IMG/VR virus record: IMGVR_UViG_3300012275_000021
DNA from: a virus
Lineage: Duplodnaviria; Heunggongvirae; Uroviricota; Caudoviricetes
Reading direction: 5' to 3' (one strand)
Length of the DNA stretch: 7,795 nt
In this document: positions 1,085 through 7,099 of the stretch, in pieces
How the letters are laid out: the number at the start of each line of letters is the position of its first letter
How positions within the stretch are numbered: the first letter of the stretch is position 1
Made by a program: the position numbers and the translations under genes
The notes under the pieces: generated by a model
Database searches by the model: none
What the model saw: only the letters and a program-made list of their open reading frames with translations
Told to the model about the DNA's origin: nothing

Positions 1085-1510
1085 TCAATGTACTGCCACA
1101 GCATTTCCTGCCGGGCCACCACGGTTCATCTGATTGAAACCGGCGATTGCCACTGCGACAAAATCATCAGCGTCTCTCACCAATCGCTCCCGCGTCTCCA
1201 CCAGCTCCCGAAAATAAGCTGAACTGTGGCTGCGCATTCTGGCCACCAGCAAAGGTGGCATTGCCTTTTCGATCGCTGGTAACAACGCCTGAATTTTTTC
1301 AACTGCATCAGGGGTGTCTTTCTCTACCCAGCGGAAAATTTTCTGGGTATTGCGAGCCAAGGCTTCCGGATGGCTGTCGTCATACAGTTCAGGAAACGTC
1401 ATACCCAACTCAAAATAAGCCTGGGTTATTCCAGCTGCTGGAACTTTTTCGCCATCAGGACGCGCCCAGGCATTCATCGCCATGCGGATGTGTTCATGCT
1501 TGATTTTCAT
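1085..1510 (-). CDS. ydaT: YdaT-like protein (CII-position regulator of Rac-type prophages)
   Basis: 141-aa ORF beginning MKIKHEHI, which I recall as the YdaT N-terminus. GGAGG Shine-Dalgarno 5 nt upstream. Start codon overlaps the stop of the upstream cro-like gene as ATGA (1510-1507). Position is immediately downstream of the cro-like gene. Confidence 0.7.
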   Translation of the reverse strand: MKIKHEHIRMAMNAWARPDGEKVPAAGITQAYFELGMTFPELYDDSHPEALARNTQKIFRWVEKDTPDAVEKIQALLPAIEKAMPPLLVARMRSHSSAYFRELVETRERLVRDADDFVAVAIAGFNQMNRGGPAGNAVAVH

Positions 1511-1737
1511 GAATCCTCCCCTTGGTTAGAAGGCGGATTATGATCAGAACCGGGAATGACAACCGTCGGTATGTGTAACTCATATTTGAGCGCCCCGGCA
1601 GTGACTGCCTGAATTAGCAACGCCCATTTCCACGGAACCTCTTCCCCCCACATGCTGACTGTGGTTTTTGACGTTCCTAGAGCTGCGGCTGTTTTAACAA
1701 CTCCGCCAAAATAGCCTAATACTTCTGATTTTTTCAT
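1507..1737 (-). CDS. ydaS: YdaS-like Cro-type HTH regulator
   Basis: Track ORF 1507..1785 trimmed to the internal ATG at 1737-1735 (MKKSEVLGYFGGVVKTAAALGTSKTTVSMWG...), which has a GGAG Shine-Dalgarno 8 nt upstream; the longer form has none. Small HTH-like protein divergent from the repressor gene. Family name from memory. Confidence 0.75.
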   Translation of the reverse strand: MKKSEVLGYFGGVVKTAAALGTSKTTVSMWGEEVPWKWALLIQAVTAGALKYELHIPTVVIPGSDHNPPSNQGEDS

Positions 1738-1828
1738 GAGTCGCTCCATAAAACTGAACGCCAAAAGTTTAATAATCAAAACCAAAGAAAGTCAAGAAAC
1801 AAAACCATCTGTGTTTTAAAATCAAAAC
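1738..1828. promoter_or_regulatory. Divergent operator/promoter region between cro-like and repressor genes (PR/PRM analogue)
   Basis: A+T-rich 91-bp spacer. Perfect-arm palindrome TGTTTTaaaatcAAAACA at 1812-1829 abuts the repressor ATG. CAAAAC half-site-like motifs at 1777, 1800 and 1823 are spaced 23 bp apart. TAAAAT -10-like hexamer at 1817-1822 sits 6 bp before the repressor ATG. TTGACT on the minus strand (complement of 1790-1795) is a candidate -35 for the leftward promoter. Confidence 0.6.
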
Positions 1829-2467
1829 ATGAGCAAGCAAACAATATCTGAACGCATAACCCAACGTATGCATGCGCTAAACCTGAAAGGCAAAGACCTT
1901 GTCAATGCCACTGGCGCATCAAAAGGCTCCGTAAGTCAATGGATGAACGGTGGAGGAGCGCCGTCCTCGCGTTACATAAGTTCACTGGCAAAGATATTGA
2001 AAGTAAACGAAAATTGGCTTCTTAATGGAGGAGAGTTAAATACAGGTGATTCGCTTGATCTATCTTTACCGCCGATAAAAACGGTTCCGCTACTATCACT
2101 TCAGCAGGCAGCAAGCTGGAGTGATTATATGAAAAATTCCTCAATAACCTCTTGTGTGCAGCTTGTCGGAGAAATCCCGGCCAATACCTTTGCAGTTGTT
2201 CTAGAGAGTGACAGTATGTCAACATCTGGTGGGGGAGTTTCCATCCCAAATGGTTCAACAGTTTTTGTTGATCCCGATCGAACCGTACAACCAGGAAATA
2301 TTGTCCTTGCCTTACCCAAAGGGACCACAACACCTGTCATTCGTAAACTGGAGATAGAAGGGCCGGATATTCTTTTAGTCCCCACGAATCCTCGCTACCC
2401 TTCAATTATGCTGGATGATCTATCTTGCATATTGGGCGTATGCTTTAAAATTCAACAAGATATTTAA
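1829..2467 (+). CDS. CI-like prophage repressor, N-terminal HTH (XRE-type) plus C-terminal S24 LexA-like peptidase domain
   Basis: 212 aa. N-terminus has an HTH signature (LKGKDLVNATGASKGSVSQWMNG). C-terminus has S24 motifs: VVLESDSM (Ser motif), GSTVFVDPDRTVQPGNIVLA, and PVIRKLE (Lys motif). Divergent from the cro-like gene. No Shine-Dalgarno upstream of the ATG. Confidence 0.85.
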   Translation: MSKQTISERITQRMHALNLKGKDLVNATGASKGSVSQWMNGGGAPSSRYISSLAKILKVNENWLLNGGELNTGDSLDLSLPPIKTVPLLSLQQAASWSDYMKNSSITSCVQLVGEIPANTFAVVLESDSMSTSGGGVSIPNGSTVFVDPDRTVQPGNIVLALPKGTTTPVIRKLEIEGPDILLVPTNPRYPSIMLDDLSCILGVCFKIQQDI

Positions 2468-3633: not shown

Positions 3634-3691
3634 TTTCTGGTGACGTTTGGCGGTATCAGTTTTACTCCGTGACTGCTCTGCCGCCCTTTTT
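3634..3691 (+). ncRNA. dicF: DicF small regulatory RNA (antisense inhibitor of ftsZ translation) with 3' intrinsic-terminator-like stem and U tract
   Basis: tttctggtgacgtttggcggtatcagttttactccgtgactgctctgccgccctttt matches the DicF sequence as I remember it. GGCGG (3649-3653) pairs with CCGCC (3681-3685) and is followed by TTTTT (3687-3691). Sits between ydfC and dicB as in Qin. Exact 5' end is processing-defined and approximate here. Confidence 0.8.
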
Positions 3692-3860: not shown

Positions 3861-4049
3861 ATGAAAACGTTATTACCAAACGTTAATACGTCTGAAGGTT
3901 GTTTTGAAATTGGTGTCACTATCAGTAATCCTGTATTTACTGAAGATGCCATTAACAAAAGAAAACACGAACGGGAGTTATTAAATAAAGTATGCATTGT
4001 TTCAATGCTGGCCCGTTTACGTCTGATGCCAAAAGGATGTGCACAATGA
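3861..4049 (+). CDS. dicB: DicB cell-division inhibitor (acts with MinC on FtsZ)
   Basis: 62-aa product MKTLLPNVNTSEGCFEIGVTISNPVFTEDAINKRKHERELLNKVCIVSMLARLRLMPKGCAQ, near-identical to K-12 DicB as I recall it. Internal start of track ORF 3756..4049 chosen for length match and a GAGGG Shine-Dalgarno. Confidence 0.85.
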   Translation: MKTLLPNVNTSEGCFEIGVTISNPVFTEDAINKRKHERELLNKVCIVSMLARLRLMPKGCAQ

Positions 4050-4237
4050 ATCCAGTATTTGCACTTATTCTGACGGTTTTTCTTGTTTCCGGAGAGCCAG
4101 TTGATATTGCAGTCAGTGTTCACAGAACAATGCAGGAATGTATGGCAGCAGCAACCGAACAGAAAATTCCAGGCAACTGTTATCCGGTCGATAAAGTTAT
4201 TCACCAGGATAATAACGAAATCCCGGCAGGATTTTAA
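4046..4237 (+). CDS. ydfD: YdfD-like small membrane protein (lysis-associated in Qin)
   Basis: 63-aa product MNPVFALILTVFLVSGEPVDIAVSVHRTMQECMAAATEQKIPGNCYPVDKVIHQDNNEIPAGF with a hydrophobic N-terminal segment. ATG 4046-4048 overlaps the dicB stop 4047-4049 (ATGA coupling). Internal start of track ORF 3992..4237. Confidence 0.75.
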   Translation: MNPVFALILTVFLVSGEPVDIAVSVHRTMQECMAAATEQKIPGNCYPVDKVIHQDNNEIPAGF

Positions 4238-4330: not shown

Positions 4331-6837
4331 ATGAGCACTGATAAAGAAGAATTTGCACTATATTGCGAAGCAAAAAATGACAAAGTAAGAAAACGCCTAG
4401 GAATTAAAGGTGGTTTTTACTGGACTACAGCAAAAAAATTATCTGTTGCAATCTCCCGCTGCATTACCGCAATGGATGACAACGATTATGATGAAGACGA
4501 CTTTAAAAAACCCGTCCGCGTCAATTTGCCCGTTGTTGACGACCTTCCGCCAGAAGGCGTGTTTGATACTGAATTCTGCAACCGCTATGAAAAAGGCGGG
4601 AAAGATGGCATCACAATGACATTTATCGGCCCTTCCCCCTCTGTTCAGGACAAACCAGCCAGCACTGACAATACCAACATCAACGGCGAAGACATGACTA
4701 AGATTGAGGAGAGCATGCTTCTGCCTGTCTCCGGTCAGGAACTGCCCATTCGTTGGCTTGCTCAACACGGCAGCGAAAAACCAGTAACGCACGTTTCACG
4801 CGACGAACTCCAGGCATTACACATTGCACGGGCTGAAGAACTACCGGCTGTTACTGCCCTGGCTATTTCGCATAAAACCAGTCTGCTCGACTCGCTGGAG
4901 ATTCGCGACCTCCACAAACTGGTTCGTGACACTGACAAAGTTTTCCCTAATCCTGGTAATTCAGACCTGGGACTAATAACTGCTTTTTTCGAAGCATACC
5001 TGGACGCTGACTACACTGATCGGGGTCTGCTGACAAAAGAGTGGATGAAAGGAAATCGTGTTTCACGCATCACCCGCACGGCTTCCGGTGCTAATGCTGG
5101 CGGTGGGAACAAAACCGATCGCAATCCGAATTTAGTACACACCCTCGACACACTGGATGTGGAGATTGCAGCAGCCACACTTCCGATGGATTTTAATATT
5201 TATGAAATTCCGGGCAGCGTTTATCGTCGCGCAAAAGAAGTAGTCCTGAACAAAGAAAGTCCGTTCAAAGAATGGTCCGCAGCACTTCGTGCAACCCCGG
5301 GTATTCTGGACTATTCCCGCGCCGCTATTTTTGCACTTATCCGAAGCGCACACCCTGAATTTTATCACTACCCGGGACGCCTTCAGGGGTATATCAACGC
5401 CTATTTGACGGAAACTGATCACGAGAACCCCAGCAAGGAAACTCTCACAGCTGCCCGGCATACGCCGGAAAAAGATATCCTGGAAAAAATTAACCGCGAG
5501 GTGGTTACTGAGCGTGAAACAGAAGAAGAAAAACCACAACCATCTGACGCAATGGCAGGTGAACAGGCAACAACTGAAACAATGGAACCGGATACAACTG
5601 AACATGGCCAGAACGCGCAGTCGCTGGATGCTCAGTCGCAGGTGAGTTCCGCTAACCAAGTAAAAGTCACCGCTGACGAAGTAAACAAAATTATGCAGGC
5701 AGCCAATATCAGCCAGCCTGACGCCGATAAGTTACTTGCTGTATCGCGTGGTGAATTTGTTGAGGGGATTAGCGACCCTAATGATCCGAAATGGGTCAAG
5801 GGGATCCAGACTCGCGATTCTGTGAACCAGAACCAGCATGAATCGGAACGGAACGACCAAAAAGCGGAACAAAACAGCCCAAATGCGTTACAAAACGAGC
5901 CAGAAACGAAACAATCCGAACCAGTAGCGCAACAGGAACCGGAAAAAGTCTGCACCGCCTGCGGTCAGAGCGGTGGCGGCAACTGCCCTGATTGTGGCGC
6001 GGTGATGGGCGACGCAACATACCAGGAAACATTCGATGAAGAGAATCAGGTTGAAGTTCAGGAAAATGATCCGGAGGAAATGGAAGGCGCTGAACATCCA
6101 CACAAGGAGAACCCTGGCGGCAATCAGCATCACGCCAGCGATAATAAAACTGGCGAGGCGACAGATCCCTTAATTAAGGTGAATGGTCATCATAAGCTCA
6201 CATCCACCAGCAGAGCGGGGATTCATCTGATGATCGACCTTGAAACCATGGGAAAAAATCCCGATGCCCCGATTATCTCAATAGGCGCAATATTTTTCGA
6301 TCCACAAACCGGAGATATGGGACCGGAATTTAGCAAGACCATCGATCTGGATACTGCTGGCGGAGTCATTGATCGTGACGTCATTAAATGGTGGCTGAAG
6401 CAATCACGTGAAGCGCAGTCTGCCATTATGACCGATGAAATCCCGTTAGATGATGCACTACTGCAATTGCGGGAATTTATCGACGAAAACTCCGGTGAAT
6501 TTTTTGTTCAGGTCTGGGGTAATGGGGCCAACTTCGACAACGTGATTTTACGCCGTTCATACGAACGACAGGGTATCCCCTGCCCATGGCGCTACTGNNN
6601 NNNNNNNNNNNNNNNNNNNNNNNNNNNNNNNNNNNNNNNNNNNNNNNNNNNNNNNNNNNNNNNNNNNNNNNNNNNNNACGCACAATCGTTGAGCTGGGGA
6701 AAGCCATAGACTTCGATGCCAGAACTGCTATCCCATTCGAAGGTGAGCGCCATAATGCACTTGATGACGCTCGTTACCAGGCAAAATACGTTTCAGCTAT
6801 CTGGCAAAAACTGATCCCGAGTCAGGCTGATTTTTAA
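4331..6837 (+). CDS. Large multidomain exonuclease: N-terminal region of the kind annotated exodeoxyribonuclease VIII/RecE-like in prophages, acidic linker, CxxC-x7-CxxC zinc ribbon, C-terminal DEDDh (DnaQ-like) 3'-5' exonuclease domain; interrupted by an 80-N run
   Basis: Track ORF 4331..6709 reads through the Ns in frame 2, and its tail after the Ns (AQSLSWGKP) is out of frame. The true continuation is frame 1 from 6679 to the stop at 6835-6837 (RTIVELGKAIDFDARTAIPFEGERHNALDDARYQAKYVSAIWQKLIPSQADF). DEDDh motifs: exo I MIDLET (~6236-6247), exo II WGNGANFD, exo III HNALDD after the gap. Zinc ribbon CTACGQSGGGNCPDCG at about 5951-5996. Acidic low-complexity linker at roughly aa 390-620. Confidence 0.75.
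6598..6677. other. Run of 80 ambiguous bases (assembly gap or masked segment) inside the exonuclease gene
   Basis: Direct reading: 80 consecutive n. Flanking reading frames differ (frame 2 before, frame 1 after), so the true missing length is not 80 if this is one continuous gene. Confidence 0.95.
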
Positions 6838-6895
6838 TGTTCAACCCTAATTGCCGCTAACCGTATATAGTTAGCGGCGGTTATGAGATATAGCT

Positions 6896-7099
6896 ATGAG
6901 CAGCTTATTTTTAACCGAAGATGAATTGCTAATATTAACGGGCTGCAAATATGCAAGCCACCAGCGAAAATGGTTAATGGAAAACGGGCTTCCGTTCTAT
7001 ACCAATCGTAGTGGCAAACCGATTGTCAGCCGGGATCTATTTACCTGCAATAAAACTTTACCACCACGCGAGGTAGAGCCGAATTTTGGTGCGATCTGA
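6896..7099 (+). CDS. Small excisionase-like protein (recombination directionality factor candidate) upstream of and coupled to int
   Basis: 67-aa ORF MSSLFLTEDELLILTGCKYASHQRKWLMENGLPFY... Its stop TGA (7097-7099) overlaps the integrase ATG (7099-7101). Xis-like position; family assignment from memory is tentative. Confidence 0.55.
   Translation: MSSLFLTEDELLILTGCKYASHQRKWLMENGLPFYTNRSGKPIVSRDLFTCNKTLPPREVEPNFGAI

Follow-up and report, generated by a model that had tools for sequence, protein, structure and literature searches.

RecE (exonuclease VIII), encoded by the Rac prophage of Escherichia coli K-12, degrades DNA in the 5'-3' direction through a PD-(D/E)XK nuclease domain located at the end of a long polypeptide. 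To our knowledge, the role of the ~600 N-terminal residues that precede this domain has been a puzzle since the enzyme was described, the only thing known being a boost to linear-linear recombination by the full-length protein. This enhancement by the N-terminal scaffold was reported for full-length RecE (PMC11611040, PMC5861427). A distinct group of nucleases is represented by DexA of phage T4, a 3'-5' DNA exonuclease which scavenges host DNA and whose structure was solved in 2025, and by EcD, a stand-alone DexA homologue of E. coli named 'HREX', which digests DNA containing 5-hydroxymethylcytosine (5hmC) and protects against T4 (PMC12153337). Here, we present the analysis of a gene carried on the plus strand (positions 4331-6837) of a 7,795-nucleotide (nt) stretch of DNA, hereafter the window, from the Caudoviricetes record IMGVR_UViG_3300012275_000021. 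Its product of 813 amino acids (aa) is best placed in the DexA/Rv2179c exonuclease family, as an unstudied member endowed with a RecE scaffold.

The C-terminal part of the protein (aa 632-803; 6224-6804, plus strand, interrupted by an assembly gap) matches the Rv2179c/DexA-like family PF16473, named in Pfam the Rv2179c-like 3'-5' exoribonuclease domain, over profile positions 2-177 of 177 (E 8.8e-66, 221.4 bits against a cutoff of 27). This score is far beyond chance. Taken separately, the pieces of the domain that flank the gap in the window reach 149.6 and 47.6 bits, and a weak RNase_T match falls on the same C-terminal domain. A preliminary description made from the sequence alone had read a DEDDh 3'-5' exonuclease in three motifs, all of which were located as quoted on the plus strand: MIDLET as Exo I (D636 and E638; 6230-6247), NGANFD as Exo II (D736; 6521-6538) and HNALDD as an Exo III of the 'h' type (H786 and D791; 6751-6768). 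These five catalytic residues, together with the F-D pair of Exo II, are invariant in an alignment with DexA, EcD and gp31 of phage mEpX2, and the catalytic residues are kept down to 25% identity. T4 DexA is the top match both by sequence (PDB 8kel, E 5.6e-5, phmmer against PDB sequences) and by fold (Foldseek E 2e-7, TMt 0.65), followed in Foldseek by RNase T, a Cas-associated DnaQ domain and oligoribonuclease (Orn), with E-values of about 1e-6 to 1e-5. The AlphaFold model of the domain displays an RNase H-like DnaQ fold, with a predicted local distance difference test (pLDDT) of about 64-95 per 10-residue block. Furthermore, the ratio of nonsynonymous to synonymous substitution rates (dN/dS) between the window allele and a Qin-type allele, whose DNA differs by ~7%, is 0.11, and the DEDDh domain is therefore maintained by purifying selection. 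The domain thus carries the full catalytic set of a DEDDh exonuclease and belongs to the T4 DexA/Rv2179c family. With DexA (PDB 8kel/8ken), the gene product has all DEDDh residues in common but shows only ~25% identity, DexA being a 227-aa stand-alone protein with extra loops, to which the gene product opposes an additional N-terminal scaffold of 625 aa. Rv2179c of Mycobacterium tuberculosis, the founder of PF16473, belongs to the same Pfam family, as compared by profile hidden Markov model (HMM) only; it differs as a bacterial stand-alone 3'-5' exoribonuclease, according to the Pfam family description, and was not reached by the phmmer search against PDB sequences.

Upstream of this domain, the protein resembles RecE. 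Its aa 58-615 are 58% identical to residues 50-591 of K-12 RecE (BLASTP), with which it has in common the PF06630 family domain, a helical middle domain, an acidic linker and a CxxC-x7-CxxC motif, as well as the genomic slot, late in the early-left operon. The preliminary description had likened only the N-terminal ~400 aa to the function-unknown region of proteins annotated as exodeoxyribonuclease VIII; the likeness holds, but its extent was underestimated, as it covers aa 58-615 and includes both the linker and the cysteine motif. By contrast, BLASTP detected no similarity past RecE residue 591, the PD-(D/E)XK domain of RecE (PF12684/DUF3799) spanning residues 615-850, and PF12684 gave no match in the gene product under the same Pfam search in which K-12 RecE scores E 4e-28. 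Showing PF16473 and no canonical PD-(D/E)XK RecE domain, the profile search bears out the earlier view that the fold differs from that of the RecE nuclease: a DEDDh RNase H-like fold stands in its place, with an expected 3'-5' polarity where RecE is 5'-3'. The first 57 aa also differ from those of RecE, and no recT comes next. The NCBIfam exonuclease VIII equivalog NF007259 matches aa 1-616 only (profile positions 1-603 of 877), with 945 bits, below its cutoff of 1269. With homology ending at the RecE nuclease boundary and a low equivalog score, the protein is not a RecE but a RecE scaffold bearing another nuclease head, and filing the gene as RecE was rejected on the missing domain and this sub-cutoff score. 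At the DNA level, nt 339-792 and 1192-1844 of the gene are respectively 92% and 75% identical to K-12 recE, and nt 1331-2507 share 92-97% identity with the gene for the 823-aa exonuclease of intact Qin-type prophages, the pattern of a typical lambdoid mosaic.

Structure prediction with AlphaFold2, based on a 61-sequence alignment, gave confident folds for aa 1-100, aa ~120-400 and the DEDDh domain, with aa 400-625 predicted as disordered. The N-terminal alpha/beta subdomain (aa 1-100; 4331-4630, plus strand; pLDDT 84-98) begins with 57 aa that have no alignment to K-12 RecE. It is overlapped by the PF06630 match (Exonuc_VIII, the RecE N-terminal family; aa 57-189; 4499-4897, plus strand; E 3.8e-36, 125 bits against a cutoff of 25). 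The helical middle domain (aa 120-400; 4688-5530, plus strand), delineated by a pLDDT mostly above 90, by the conservation profile and by PF27432 on relatives, carries the motifs RTxSGxxAGGGxxTDR and PGILDYSRA, and no module of the scaffold is more widely conserved than its aa 190-400 (Pfam YdfE_C in relatives). The long acidic linker noticed in the preliminary description ahead of the nuclease corresponds to aa 401-625 (5531-6205, plus strand), a predicted disordered, Q/N-rich segment with a net charge of -26, 41 Q/N residues and a pLDDT below 50 over most of its length. Within it, conservation and a modelled helix (aa 465-472) define a short helix and linear motif (aa 465-496, LLAVSRGEFVEGISDPNDPKW...; 5723-5818, plus strand), in which A470, D482, P483 and P486 are each conserved in no fewer than 80% of those aligned sequences that are ungapped at the position, making it a candidate partner-binding site. 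The best-conserved block of the linker is the CxxC-x7-CxxC motif with its flank (C541, C544, C552 and C555; 5951-5995, plus strand), a candidate zinc knuckle or ribbon which had also been noticed before the nuclease and whose pattern is identical in K-12 RecE. Its match to a zinc-ribbon profile is weak, at 13 bits for a cutoff of 27.3 (Pfam DZR, E 0.12), and AlphaFold models a short, low-confidence beta-hairpin there, with a local pLDDT of about 63. Among 150 representative clusters, 14 show the motif, some with a DEDDh head and some with a PD-(D/E)XK head, and most scaffold relatives are devoid of it.

The gene is real and intact, although the window itself interrupts it with an 80-N assembly gap (6598-6677). 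One open reading frame (ORF) of the window (4331-6709, 792 codons) enters the N block and a second frame runs from 6679 to the TAA stop at 6835-6837. The true size of the gap was obtained by megablast against complete E. coli genomes: in chromosomes 99.8% identical on both flanks, it stands for 15 in-frame bases (window 6597 and 6678 correspond to 8267 and 8283 of L001, a near-identical chromosome), from the end of codon 756 to codon 761 (C-NDRDV in these relatives). The flanks therefore belong to a single frame of 813 codons, with the gap read as 15 bases, in agreement with the earlier reading of one gene and not two split by the gap. Codon 756 is cut in the window (TG followed by N), which formally allows Cys, Trp or a stop at this position. 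The N block is a fixed-size placeholder, and downstream coordinates are therefore shifted by 65 relative to the true sequence. A similarity search with the full protein, which returned only near-identical E. coli entries, retrieved proteins of identical 813-aa sequence on record at NCBI, under the names 'exonuclease', '3'-5' exonuclease', '3'-5' exoribonuclease' or 'exodeoxyribonuclease VIII'.

The distribution of the scaffold was surveyed by an exhaustive HMMER search of aa 1-615 against 1.84 billion representatives clustered at 50% identity. This search yielded only 265 clusters, so the family is narrow. Longer matches, classed against reference segments, were found with either of two heads: DEDDh in P0121, P0127, P0130, P0131, P0136-P0138, P0144, P0163, P0170, P0174, P0187, P0204, P0209 and P0258, and PD-(D/E)XK in P0123, P0126, P0132, P0135, P0141, P0146-P0149 and others. 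The gene of the window thus represents an exchange of nuclease heads between proteins that have the scaffold in common, brought about by the mosaic recombination usual in lambdoid phages. Some scaffold relatives carry C-terminal tails that have no Pfam match, and a third head type is possible. For instance, P0199 (L048 4001-6921) combines YdfE_N and YdfE_C with a tail of ~450 aa without Pfam match and is followed by a Sipho_Gp157 gene, not by RecT or xis; it may represent such a third head type with its own partner. In another relative, P0124 (703 aa), PF06630 (2-178), the middle domain and a portion of the linker run directly into RecT (PF03837, 528-678), which looks like an in-frame loss of the nuclease head joining recE to recT.

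The gene is already catalogued with this architecture, and few prophage genes of E. coli are commoner. DNA of the DEDDh head (at least 80% coverage) was found in 4041 of 5426 complete E. coli genomes (74%), at up to 7 places per genome, the RecE nuclease head being rarer (1730 of the same genomes); the window's exact combination (at least 80% of the whole gene) occurs in 1180. Its counterpart in K-12 is ydfE of the Qin prophage, a pseudogene cut by IS2E (L036 5079-5999; NC_000913.3 1650078-1650998) whose remaining 256 residues show 99% identity to the beginning of P0130 (WP_000048342.1). This intact 823-aa allele (e.g. L037 4096-6567) has another N-terminus and the same linker and DEDDh head, this Qin-type allele being the intact form of ydfE. 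The order dicB - ydfD - gene - xis - int is common to YdfE/P0130 and to the window, and P0130 is 90% identical over the linker and zinc motif and 95% identical over the head, but the first ~250-255 aa are unrelated, being of the YdfE_N type there and of the RecE PF06630 type here. Reading ydfE as a truncated copy of the present gene was consequently rejected on these unrelated first 255 aa; it is instead a remnant of the sister allele P0130.

The genomic surroundings separate the two head types further. No annealase of the RecT, Bet, Erf or Rad52-like kinds is encoded in the window between the repressor gene (1829-2467) and int (7099 onward); the intervening genes are DUF1391, ydfB, ydfC, the DicF RNA, DicB and DUF1482, which upholds the earlier statement that no RecT-like partner precedes xis. 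An annealase was likewise missing from the seven other DEDDh-fusion contexts examined, namely phage PPompW_EH2201, a Qin-type prophage at rspB and, in other assemblies, the divergent clusters P0131, P0163, P0137, P0170 and P0258. In all eight contexts, the DEDDh fusion is the last early-left gene before xis/int. No annotated annealase was found in the complete prophage of a 99.8%-identical relative, where RusA is present. By contrast, recT follows the PD-(D/E)XK-headed members in every listed E. coli match and in two divergent clusters. Head type and annealase presence thus go together.

On the plus strand, the gene is preceded by dicB (3861-4049) and, directly upstream, by a DUF1482/ydfD-like gene (4046-4237), and it therefore lies in the ydfE slot of Qin-like prophages. 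DUF1391, ydfB and ydfC follow the repressor gene and precede the DicF small RNA (3635-3686, plus strand; Rfam RF00039, 76.7 bits, E 4e-16), an intact dicBF-type operon thus standing upstream of the exonuclease. The immunity region (1085-2467) is not of the DicA/DicC type of K-12 Qin: it comprises a YdaT-like gene (1085-1510, minus strand), a P22 Cro-like gene (1507-1785, minus strand) and a cI-type repressor with an S24 peptidase domain (1829-2467, plus strand), so that the dicBF operon would here be under an SOS-cleavable repressor. This region is also where the window departs from the otherwise 99%-identical L001, with only 85% identity over 1087-1515 and no match over 1516-2593. Downstream, a DUF4224 gene in the xis position starts at 6896 (plus strand) and is followed by the integrase gene from 7099. 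The 58-nt spacer between the exonuclease stop and the xis-position gene holds an inverted repeat (6848-6883) whose 14-nt arms, 86% complementary, enclose an 8-nt loop. The lack of a T-run sets it apart from classic intrinsic terminators; the repeat could serve in RNA processing, retroregulation or protein binding. A promoter and terminator scan around the gene remained at background level. Two features of related prophages complete this picture. A small Rrf2-family (PF02082) gene lies directly before the DEDDh fusion in three divergent prophages (L033, L042 and L045), at the place of dicB and ydfD in E. coli. The prophage of the near-identical relative carries QueH (epoxyqueuosine reductase), hokD and four tRNA genes (Gly, Thr, Lys and Ile) in its late-regulation region, outside the window (L041 46003-46668).

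With moderate confidence, we propose that the gene encodes a two-module nuclease belonging to the early-left operon of a lambdoid Qin/Rac-like prophage, working on induction as a solo Mg-dependent 3'-5' DNA exonuclease targeted by its RecE-type scaffold. The first module (aa 1-615) is this scaffold, made of two folded domains and an acidic disordered linker with its short motif and four-cysteine knuckle, and the second (aa 632-803) the DEDDh exonuclease, placed at the site of the PD-(D/E)XK nuclease of RecE. Expression would start once the S24-type repressor is inactivated, and the enzyme would then remove nucleotides from free 3' ends of DNA by two-metal chemistry, as in DexA. The scaffold would bring it to the same partner or DNA structure as the N-terminal region of RecE, a targeting to which the conserved SDPxDPxW motif of the linker and the cysteine knuckle perhaps contribute. 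The protein would accordingly act as a solitary end-processing nuclease during lytic growth and not as one half of an exonuclease-annealase recombinase. The catalytic part of this model is much more secure than the biological role. DNA is favoured over RNA as the phage substrate by the stand-alone homologues, which lie among DNA-metabolism genes: Erf-SSB-exo-Abc2 in mEpX2, SSB-exo-metallophosphatase in a Vibrio phage and helicase-exo in a Morganella phage.

The first alternative, that the enzyme processes DNA ends for recombination as RecE does, using host RecA/RecFOR, SSB or the annealase of another prophage, appears unlikely. It would account for the occupied recE slot and for the shared scaffold, which enhances linear-linear recombination in RecE (PMC11611040, PMC5861427), and RusA in the prophage of the near-identical relative points the same way. 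So does mEpX2 gp31, annotated '3'-5' exoribonuclease', which is 58% identical to the C-terminal domain and also belongs to a lambdoid early-left region, where it lies between ssb and abc2, just after the Erf annealase gene; it differs from the gene product in being a 182-aa protein without scaffold. On the other hand, a 3'-5' exonuclease degrades the very 3' tails needed by annealases and RecA. The expected polarity is opposite to that of all known exonuclease-annealase pairs, and none of the eight contexts examined has an adjacent annealase.

A role in prophage defence of the HREX/EcD type, in which the head would degrade incoming phage DNA with modified cytosines and shield the lysogen from T-even phages, is quite doubtful. 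It draws on the activity of EcD against 5hmC DNA and T4 (PMC12153337). Our EcD candidate, a 189-aa protein beginning with MIDTET and carrying Ala at position 78, fits the published primers and description, and the domain shows 37% identity to EcD over 183 aa, with the same Pfam family, the same catalytic residues and the same host species. In addition, the neighbouring dicB was reported to protect against phage (PMC6832061). Unlike the gene product, EcD is a stand-alone protein of ~189 aa, and the residues that matter to its proposed function diverge. W152 and D169 of DexA were proposed for 5hmC recognition, and D90 is a tetramer residue lost in EcD (PMC12153337). EcD keeps W and E at the recognition positions, which correspond to C756 and K769 in the 99.8%-identical relative (Tyr at 756 in the Qin-type allele), whereas D90, replaced by Ala78 in EcD, is retained here as D708. 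By the criteria of PMC12153337, the enzyme is not of the EcD type, and filing it as HREX was rejected on the missing recognition residues and the retained tetramer Asp. Furthermore, the gene belongs to a repressor-controlled early operon, hence is probably silent in the lysogen, and PADLOC gave only a weak Cas-associated DEDDh match (E 4.9e-5), with no defence-system match beyond.

Counter-defence or host takeover, in which host or defence-system molecules presenting a free 3' end (e.g. retron multicopy single-stranded DNA (msDNA), single-stranded DNA signals or RNA 3' ends) would be removed soon after induction, is improbable as well. The gene is very widespread and multi-copy in E. coli and sits in an early operon beside the host-directed dicF, dicB and ydfD-like lysis gene, and this reading could also invoke the exoribonuclease in the PF16473 family name and the scavenging of host DNA by DexA (PMC12153337). 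Against it, the searches made gave no link to any known anti-defence family. Finally, a decaying and functionless prophage remnant, suggested by the IS2-truncated ydfE of K-12 and by frameshifted copies in PPompW_EH2201 and vB_EcoM-606R7, is highly improbable given a frame intact here and in thousands of genomes and catalytic residues kept to 25% identity, the pseudogene reading being rejected on the dN/dS value.

Beyond the enzyme itself, we tentatively consider, as a bolder and on the whole rather unlikely extension, that the RecE N-terminus serves lambdoid prophages as a general delivery platform on which nuclease heads can be exchanged. Its DEDDh form may do a distinct job on induction, such as annealase-independent end processing or the disabling of an intermediate of host defence or repair that has a free 3' end. 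Literature searches combining Rv2179c with prophage, RecE with DEDD, or using ydfE retrieved no experimental study of the fusion. No paper was found on the head swap or on the link between head type and RecT either, which is weak evidence of absence as subscription journals were thinly covered. These results imply that the name 'exodeoxyribonuclease VIII', borne by many copies, is wrong for the catalytic domain, in a gene whose DEDDh form is present in three quarters of the complete E. coli genomes, often in several copies. They also bear on the claim that E. coli DexA homologues serve as anti-T4 defence, by revealing an abundant subgroup without the proposed recognition residues. Of specialist interest are the swap between heads of opposite expected polarity and the strict link between head type and RecT. 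The use of the same scaffold with opposite expected polarity and without RecT suggests that it has a job apart from RecET recombination, and its two head types constitute a natural swap pair for testing this role of the RecE N-terminus. If the delivery-platform reading is true, comparing the heads would show what the RecE N-terminus binds.

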